NCBI GenBank assembly: GCA_945861275.1
Contig: CAMATZ010000017.1
Coordinates: 9,753 to 73,752 of the forward strand
DNA from: Bordetella parapertussis
GTDB taxonomy: Bacteria > Pseudomonadota > Gammaproteobacteria > Burkholderiales > SG8-41
Direction: 5' to 3'
DNA: 64,000 nt
Part shown: positions 28,323 through 28,666 of the stretch, one piece after another
Layout of the letters: every line of letters starts with the position of its first letter
Numbering within the stretch: position 1 is the first letter of the stretch
The notes under the pieces: generated by a model
Database searches by the model: none
What the model saw: the letters and a program-made list of their open reading frames with translations, nothing else
What the model was told of the DNA's origin: nothing
Translations under genes and position numbers: made by a program

Positions 28323-28666
28323 GATGCGATGGCCGAAGGGCAAGGCAGGCGCCTGCAAAGCGCTAAGAGCCCCTAACACAGTGAAACCCATGCTGCGTTG
28401 TGTCCAAAATCGGTGGTGGCGCGAAGGACGCGGCAGGCCATATCGCGAATATGGACAACACGTCCGACAAAGCCAGCGCCGATTTTGGGCACAACCCGGA
28501 GGGCTGGCGCGAGTTTTGCCCCAGGGCTTTGTCGCGCGCCTTGCAAATATTCGCGATATTGGCTGCGGCGCGCTTCGCGCCCTGAGCCAAAATCGTGCCA
28601 GCGCAGCATGGGTTTCATTGTGTTAGGGGCTCTCATATTCCGGTTCGAATCCGGATTGCATCTCCA
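28323..28666 (+). tRNA. tRNA-Cys(GCA)-like gene interrupted at the variable-arm position by a 266-bp palindromic element
   Basis: The 5' half 28323-28364 has acceptor GATGCGA, D-arm and anticodon arm GGCGC-CTGCAAA-GCGCT. The 3' half 28639-28666 has T-arm TCCGG-TTCGAAT-CCGGA, acceptor TTGCATC (complementary to the 5' acceptor), disc T and CCA. Confidence 0.4.
28367..28632. repeat. 266-bp composite palindromic element: 31-bp terminal inverted repeats (30/31 match) flanking two internal sub-palindromic ~100-bp hairpin units
   Basis: Left end GAGCCCCTAACACAGTGAAACCCATGCTGCG. Right end is its reverse complement with one mismatch. Both DNA strands translate to mirror-similar spurious ORFs. MITE-like. 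Confidence 0.8.

Follow-up and report, generated by a model that had tools for sequence, protein, structure and literature searches.

A tRNA-Cys gene of a betaproteobacterial tRNA array is split in its variable loop by a palindromic MITE-like element

The tRNA-Cys(GCA) gene of a long tRNA gene array is interrupted in its variable loop by a 266-bp palindrome which, as judged from comparisons between genomes, is a member of a dispersed, recently mobile family. In our view, the insert is probably a non-autonomous MITE, which lacks coding capacity and was moved in trans into a tRNA-Cys(GCA) gene of an accessory array. The stretch of DNA analyzed here (64 kb, referred to as the window) comes from the chromosome of a bacterium; it contains metabolic genes, its GC content is ~0.6, and its nearest relatives are uncultured betaproteobacterial MAGs, the RtcB proteins of which are 92% (L002) and 91% (L003) identical to the one encoded in the window.

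Comparison of 11 copies placed the ends of this GC-rich element at positions 28367–28632 (+ strand), with GAG...CTC termini; these are the very coordinates at which an initial annotation, made from the letters of the window, had recorded a 266-bp palindrome with 31-bp terminal inverted repeats differing by one mismatch. The left terminal inverted repeat, GAGCCCCTAACACAGTGAAACCCATGCTGCG, occupies positions 28367–28397 (+), and its reverse complement with one mismatch, the 31-nt right terminal inverted repeat, is found at 28602–28632 (+), the pairing between the two including one G·T position. No match to the 31-nt repeat was obtained in 100 shuffles, and the repeat is absent elsewhere in the 64-kb window, which contains one copy of the element. 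A profile of the element family, searched with nhmmer, matches the window at 28366–28633 (E = 6.7e-92). Together with the flanking bases, the terminal arms amount to 35 nt with 94% complementarity (28366–28400 and 28599–28633). The interior had been described as two mutually inverted units of ~100 bp, each itself palindromic, and this description holds: the units are related through 57-nt inverted arms (28418–28474 and 28525–28581, 79%), and the left unit folds on itself as a hairpin with 24-nt arms (28397–28420 and 28472–28495, 88%). The predicted RNA fold of the entire 28323–28666 region has an energy of −203 kcal/mol (z = −11.4), and none of 100 shuffled sequences was equally stable. Both alternative folds proposed earlier, a long hairpin and a three-way junction, can be formed by the window copy, with the Y-shaped junction being more stable than the rod-only fold (−174.7 versus −165.9 kcal/mol). 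Its 2 internal arms are hairpins of ~100 nt each, namely, P2 (28397–28495, +), with the apical sequence CCATAT-CGCGA-ATATGG, and P3 (28501–28604, +).

The interruption of the tRNA gene had gone unnoticed in the initial annotation. The 5′ part of tRNA-Cys(GCA), as read from the sequence, extends over positions 28323–28364 (+) and comprises the acceptor strand GATGCGA, the D arm and the anticodon arm GGCGC-CTGCAAA-GCGCT, whereas the 3′ part, at 28639–28666 (+), comprises the T arm TCCGG-TTCGAAT-CCGGA, the acceptor strand TTGCATC, the discriminator U73 and the encoded CCA with which the gene ends. Both halves are undamaged. Upon in silico excision of the insert, ARAGORN calls a tRNA-Cys(gca) at 28323–28666 with almost any boundaries chosen; when exactly 269 nt are removed, the resulting tRNA is 75 nt long, has a variable loop of 5 nt and retains U73 together with every stem. 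The restored molecule forms a cloverleaf with the GCA anticodon, encoded CCA and a 7-bp acceptor stem containing one G·U pair (G6·U67, by which this locus can be told apart), and the empty site would read ...GCGCTAATATTCCGG... A length of 75 nt is also that of the intact orthologous tRNA-Cys in L003, L006, L084 and L085. The orthologs follow tRNA-Met and tRNA-Thr in the related arrays, have AGAA, TACAA and ACCAG as variable loops, and are uninterrupted in all 4 orthologous arrays; the 5′ part of the window gene aligns to those in L003, L006 and L084. Because the orthologs are intact and the excision restores the 75-nt length, the comparison indicates that the insertion into the variable region is derived. 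No second tRNA-Cys is present among the tRNA calls of the window's array, and the element has probably inactivated a dispensable tRNA-Cys gene. A custom scan of ~160 RtcB loci revealed no tRNA split in the variable region other than that of the window; the remaining matches were rejected as cross-pairings between neighboring isoacceptors.

The initial annotation had regarded uniqueness as the finding that would reduce the palindrome to a one-off of unclear significance. Instead, at least 10 further independent copies, 74–89% identical at the DNA level, were identified in unrelated intergenic spacers on other metagenomic contigs. When the spurious ORF of the element was used as a query, 23 "proteins" with 50–86% identity were recovered from a large protein database, and 34 clusters were matched in an exhaustive representative search. 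Among other places, copies are located between hisZ and purA (L162) and between rsfS and nadD (L163–L166); the copy in L167 lies upstream of a gene resembling acpS (ACPS domain), that in L173 directly follows the gene for a DegP-like protease, that in P0001 separates trkH from a DUF179 gene, and a single 2.2-kb contig (L168) holds 2 copies. Approximately 9 out of 10 copies with an interpretable neighbor are co-directional with that gene, often just past its stop codon, a tendency that may be biased by gene-caller and search ascertainment. Co-directional placement just downstream of genes can be seen in L162, L169, L174 and P0001, and in L173 the left T-A-A flank (1624–1626) coincides with the stop codon of the protease gene. 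This distribution, over ordinary intergenic spacers and the 3′ ends of housekeeping genes, lends no support to the suggestion that the palindrome is a recombination or replication signal. Public data contain few members of the family. Searches of the DNA of GenBank phages, plasmids and viral contigs with 2 patterns yielded nothing beyond the flanking tRNAs, and a literature search with the long sequence motifs of the element returned chance 10-mer matches only.

The most informative was the comparison with the sister MAG L002, which carries a copy 86% identical to that of the window, but in the tRNA-Asn/tRNA-His spacer of its own array; the corresponding spacer of the window is 13 nt long and devoid of the element. 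In L002, the region equivalent to window positions 28315–28673 (5757–5790) runs from tRNA-Thr to tRNA-Phe without the element and without tRNA-Cys, a gene that has been deleted there. The different element sites in the 2 sister genomes thus indicate that the element moved recently and that the Cys gene of the array is dispensable in this lineage. Several members of the family are longer (415–582 bp), and we considered whether they contain a coding core. This candidate was rejected, as the extra length corresponds to an unrelated GC-rich repeat of 146 bp nested in one arm of the element. The second repeat (~146 bp, GTCCCGCGCAGGGCGGAGCAGG...CCCCGCAAGCGGGGCCCCTGCTCC) is inserted in arm P2, in one to two units, in L169 (798–943), L172 (233–378) and L171 (655–798), and is absent from the window.

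GAG...CTC termini are common to all copies, and a parent IS would be expected to have the termini GAGYSCCTAACA... The 3-nt flanks are T-N-A in 8 of the 11 copies on the left side and in 8 of the 11 on the right. The 2 triplets are the same in 3 copies (TAA/TAA, TAA/TAA and TTA/TTA), that is, in 3 of the 7 copies with T-N-A on both sides, for which base composition alone predicts ~2.8. In the window, the left flank is TAA (28364–28366, +), the T of which is tRNA position 43, and the right flank is TCA (28633–28635, +), with one mismatch to TAA; the 2 triplets are putative copies of a duplicated target. The sum of the element and one triplet, 266 + 3 = 269 nt, matches the excess obtained independently from the tRNA length. 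The comparison of the filled Asn/His spacer of L002 with its empty counterpart in the window does not fix the duplication, since the spacers have diverged. The target-site duplication that the initial annotation proposed to look for is partly supported: the T-N-A bias on each side, the 3 identical pairs and the 269-nt excess fit a duplication of 3 bp, but the TAA/TCA pair of the window and a frequency of identical pairs close to the compositional expectation speak against it, and the T..A bases could be an extension of the inverted repeat instead.

The termini of the IS1031 group in the ISfinder family table begin with GAG. This group, which belongs to the IS5 family, prefers 5′-TNA-3′ targets and generates an exclusive 3-bp direct repeat (PMC12016507). 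From the GAG...CTC ends and the T-N-A flanks, a DDE transposase of the IS5 family, IS1031 group, appears to be the most likely mobilizing enzyme. No transposase gene is located near the element in the window, and neither a parent IS with matching termini nor solo termini were found in the window and 174 further loci (2.4 Mb in all). The element shares with MITEs a size within the range of about 50–500 bp, non-coding sequence, conserved terminal repeats, multiple unrelated sites of insertion and presence/absence polymorphism. Of the options initially put forward for the palindrome, the mobile MITE is the one supported, by the dispersed family, the conserved terminal repeats, the differing sites in sister genomes and the bias of the flanks.

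To characterize the conserved structure, we aligned 6 full-length copies (80% mean identity). The RNAalifold consensus is a Y-shaped three-way junction, in which the terminal repeats pair to form the stem P1 of 28 pairs (columns 1–29 with 277–305) and the arms P2 and P3 account for ~100 nt each. Double substitutions maintain 22 of the 104 pairs, 14 of them in the internal arms (7 in P2, helices 2–4, and 7 in P3, helices 5–6). The rod, a single long hairpin, is possible yet inferior, being less stable and having less compensatory support: 92.6% of the cells are paired in the junction versus 87.3% in the rod, pairs with double changes number 22 versus 13 over the whole structure and 14 versus 4 outside the shared terminal stem, and the observed count is reached in 0 versus 2 of 500 shuffles. 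The junction is also favored energetically in all 6 full-length copies, by 9–37 kcal/mol. The terminal arms co-vary between copies (GCCCC/GGGGC, GTGCC/GGCAC and GTCCC/GGGAC), whereas the interior blocks are nearly invariant and vary less than a large part of the terminal repeat. The latter pattern is atypical of MITEs and hints that the fold or the sequence of the interior is constrained. Constraint on the fold may operate at the level of RNA or of single-stranded DNA as the element transposes, or may reflect concerted evolution of the palindrome arms. A strand-polarity test gave 30 G·U against 9 A·C, a ratio that we judged uninformative, since the structure had been predicted on the + strand and the energies of the minus strand are similar.

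The mirror-image ORFs on both strands of the element, which had been dismissed at the outset as spurious, are indeed present and were rejected as genes: the ORFs spanning the element have no Pfam matches, and their frame is broken by 1- to 2-nt indels in other copies (L162 and L163). Neither a promoter nor a convincing terminator was found within the element. A search with 4227 Rfam models, at the gathering threshold and at E ≤ 10, matched tRNA models only and no ribozyme or intron family. A structured ncRNA, as suggested earlier, is a possible role in view of the fold, which is conserved with covariation, but no Rfam family matches.

The long tRNA gene array (L-array) that hosts the element spans positions 27027–31153 (+) and includes 19 tRNAs called by ARAGORN, 2 tRNAs detected by Rfam only and the split tRNA-Cys. 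Several of the array tRNAs (31007–31080, 27027–27120, 28241–28314 and 28674–28749) are non-canonical: one has a 2-nt anticodon ("ca") according to ARAGORN, one long-arm tRNA, at 33 bits, barely passes the Rfam threshold, Rfam detects a Thr(TGT)-like tRNA that ARAGORN misses, and tRNA-Phe has an odd T loop. A terminator-like GC-rich hairpin followed by a T run (27915–27935) separates tRNA-Ser from tRNA-Asp and is kept in the sister MAG L002 (~5493–5520). Upstream of the array, a divergent gene (26332–26673, −) encodes a Cro/C1-type HTH protein (PF13443, E = 5.6e-8) and overlaps the best sigma-70-like site of the region, TTGACA-17-TAAAGT (26662–26690, +). The trn operon of Anabaena is repressor-controlled and, by analogy, the HTH gene and the sigma-70-like site are possibly a candidate repressor and promoter of the array. 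Directly downstream of the array are a Band_7/SPFH gene (31427–32572) and a gene for a 187-aa HNH endonuclease (32654–33217).

An RtcB RNA ligase gene (29048–30268, +; Pfam PF01139, E = 2.5e-126) is located inside the array, ~400 bp downstream of the split tRNA-Cys. The same arrangement of RtcB with a tRNA array is found in L002, L003, L005, L006, L045, L051, L068, L084, L085, L087, L091, L093 and L119, and RtcB lies inside or beside long tRNA arrays across many unrelated lineages, including Betaproteobacteria, Povalibacter and Caulobacterales; in L091, it is surrounded by 48 tRNA genes. In the RtcB-linked tRNA cluster of a Robiginitomaculum MAG (L068), ARAGORN reads the anticodon TTA at position 9629, which would be of the UAA-suppressor type, and a ~75-codon ORF with a good ribosome-binding site lies between tRNA-Phe and tRNA-Gln in the RtcB-linked array of L084 (1806–2040; also in L085). 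The association of rtcB with L-arrays has been published and read as tRNA repair under translational stress (PMC8421152). Because RtcB also accompanies arrays with intact tRNA-Cys, it is not specific to the insertion; RtcB is a general companion of long tRNA arrays and carries no evidence of splicing.

The proximity of RtcB was nonetheless what first raised the suspicion of an RtcB-dependent intron, in which the palindrome would be a functional intervening sequence, with the Y-shaped RNA excised by an endonuclease to leave 2′,3′-cyclic phosphate and 5′-OH ends and the exons joined by RtcB, or in which the transcript would be trimmed into a two-piece or long-variable-arm tRNA. Besides the ligase encoded in the same array, this reading can call on the undamaged tRNA halves, on the conservation of the fold with covariation and on the minimum-energy fold, which is predicted to retain the cloverleaf and to turn the insert into a giant variable arm; class II tRNAs bear a long arm at this very position. 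We nevertheless judge it very unlikely. The element also occupies ordinary intergenic spacers unrelated to tRNAs, the insert is missing from all 4 orthologous tRNA-Cys genes, the ~160 RtcB loci hold no other tRNA split in this way, and the sister genome L002 simply dispenses with tRNA-Cys. Furthermore, the junctions, upon inspection of the sequence, show no 3-4-3 bulge-helix-bulge but an unbroken stem in which a single A×C position is mismatched, and the Rfam search was negative for ribozymes and introns even at E = 10. The intron was rejected as the main reading, given the coexistence of RtcB with intact tRNA-Cys arrays, the published link between L-arrays and rtcB and the copies outside tRNA genes. 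In a hybrid version, a MITE-derived insert that projects from the variable pocket would let the pre-tRNA fold, and the transcript would be trimmed to a working two-piece or long-arm tRNA-Cys, or the insert would be removed and the tRNA resealed by RtcB. This would represent a bacterial protein-dependent tRNA "intron" at its birth from a transposable element, and we would give it only a slight chance.

The conservation of the interior bears on a different reading, according to which the palindrome is a structured repeat retained by the host, in the manner of REP, BIME or ERIC, that influences the stability or processing of transcripts or the binding of proteins, the copy in the tRNA gene being accidental. 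Nearly invariant interior blocks next to partly variable termini, the 22 of 104 pairs with double changes (0 of 500 shuffles), 14 of them in internal arms, and the co-directional orientation of ~9 in 10 interpretable copies would all fit such a role. However, the differing sites in sister genomes and the insertion into the body of a tRNA gene bespeak movement, the element has no Rfam match and neither a promoter nor a convincing terminator of its own, the strand-polarity test is biased by the way in which the structure was derived (with similar minus-strand energies), and the orientation trend may stem from gene-caller and search ascertainment. We regard host retention as an improbable primary account of the element, albeit one compatible with the MITE reading. 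That the palindrome is an assembly artifact, produced by a fold-back chimera or a mis-join, is barely credible. The Logan contig L001 does begin at ~28508–28509, a few bases past the center of the palindrome, and L002 contains a nearby N-gap with duplicated flanks (5549–5648), but the palindrome is imperfect (79–94%) and its left/right asymmetry is shared with copies from unrelated samples at 86–89% identity, it is bordered by the two tRNA halves, each correctly oriented, and the independent L001 assembly reproduces the right arm and the 3′ half of the tRNA at 100%.

Under the favored reading of a non-autonomous MITE, a transposase supplied in trans would have moved the element into the T43-A44-A45 site, where the final base of the anticodon stem is followed by the 2 opening bases of the variable loop of tRNA-Cys(GCA). 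An IS5/IS1031-type DDE transposase would cut T-N-A with a 3-nt stagger and thereby duplicate the target. The insertion would be tolerated because the host tRNA gene belongs to an accessory long array. The array transcript would then carry a 269-nt Y-shaped extension (29-bp P1 and 2 hairpins of ~100 nt) projecting from the variable pocket in place of the 5-nt loop, and the tRNA would be either inactivated or cleaved by RNase III at the 29–35-bp duplex, as in Correia elements, the inverted repeats of which are sites of RNase III cleavage in transcripts (PMC10969869). Splicing of the insert is unlikely.

Our results add to the MITE-like elements a family from uncultured Betaproteobacteria that had not been described before and has an elaborate structure. 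The element itself is of an ordinary kind, but its insertion site is unusual: a mobile palindrome within the body of a tRNA gene is a rare event, and the variable loop is the one position from which a long helix can project while sparing the cloverleaf. The split gene also calls for caution in annotation, in that tRNA finders miss it, gene callers produce mirror-image false proteins that have by now entered public protein databases, and assemblies are interrupted at the element, as at the start of L001. The interruption of tRNA-Cys in the window and its deletion in L002 support the notion of long tRNA arrays as dispensable loci that lose their genes one at a time. If it were true that the insert is processed and that RtcB reseals the tRNA, protein-spliced tRNA introns could arise from transposable elements.

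Archaeal and eukaryal protein-spliced tRNA introns are defined by a bulge-helix-bulge and ligated by RtcB, and, to our knowledge, Bacteria have no known splicing endonuclease. The insert resembles these introns in its non-anticodon position within a tRNA and in the presence of an RtcB gene nearby, but it lacks the bulge-helix-bulge, is a dispersed repeat and has no counterpart in the orthologous genes. The predominance of T-N-A flanks recalls the target preference of the IS1031 group of the IS5 family (PMC12016507), but the element differs from this group in lacking a transposase gene, and a full-length relative with these termini was not found in the 2.4 Mb. A close parallel in general organization is provided by the Correia (CREE) elements of Neisseria, also a betaproteobacterium, which are likewise small, non-coding and dispersed in intergenic regions, with long terminal inverted repeats; they occupy strain-specific sites, are co-transcribed with their neighbors and give rise to long duplex transcripts cleaved by RNase III (PMC10969869). 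The sequence of the present element is nevertheless unrelated and GC-rich, its 266 bp have an interior with a conserved Y shape where Correia elements form a simple hairpin of 100–200 bp, its flanks are T-N-A instead of TA, and the window copy resides inside a tRNA gene, a type of target not mentioned in a 2024 review of MITEs (PMC10969869). Rickettsia palindromic elements (RPEs) are comparable in being palindromic and inserted into functional genes where the product tolerates them (PMC10969869), just as the element described here, with putative tolerance, extends out of the variable pocket, where a tRNA is at its most permissive; RPEs differ in size (~150 bp) and sequence and are mostly in-frame inserts in protein genes. 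Finally, the host locus, an array of ~22 tRNA genes with rtcB, resembles the L-arrays published in 2021, which are spread across phyla and include some pseudogenes (PMC8421152); no repeat-interrupted tRNA was described in that work, whereas in the window such a gene is found in an array that holds rtcB within it.
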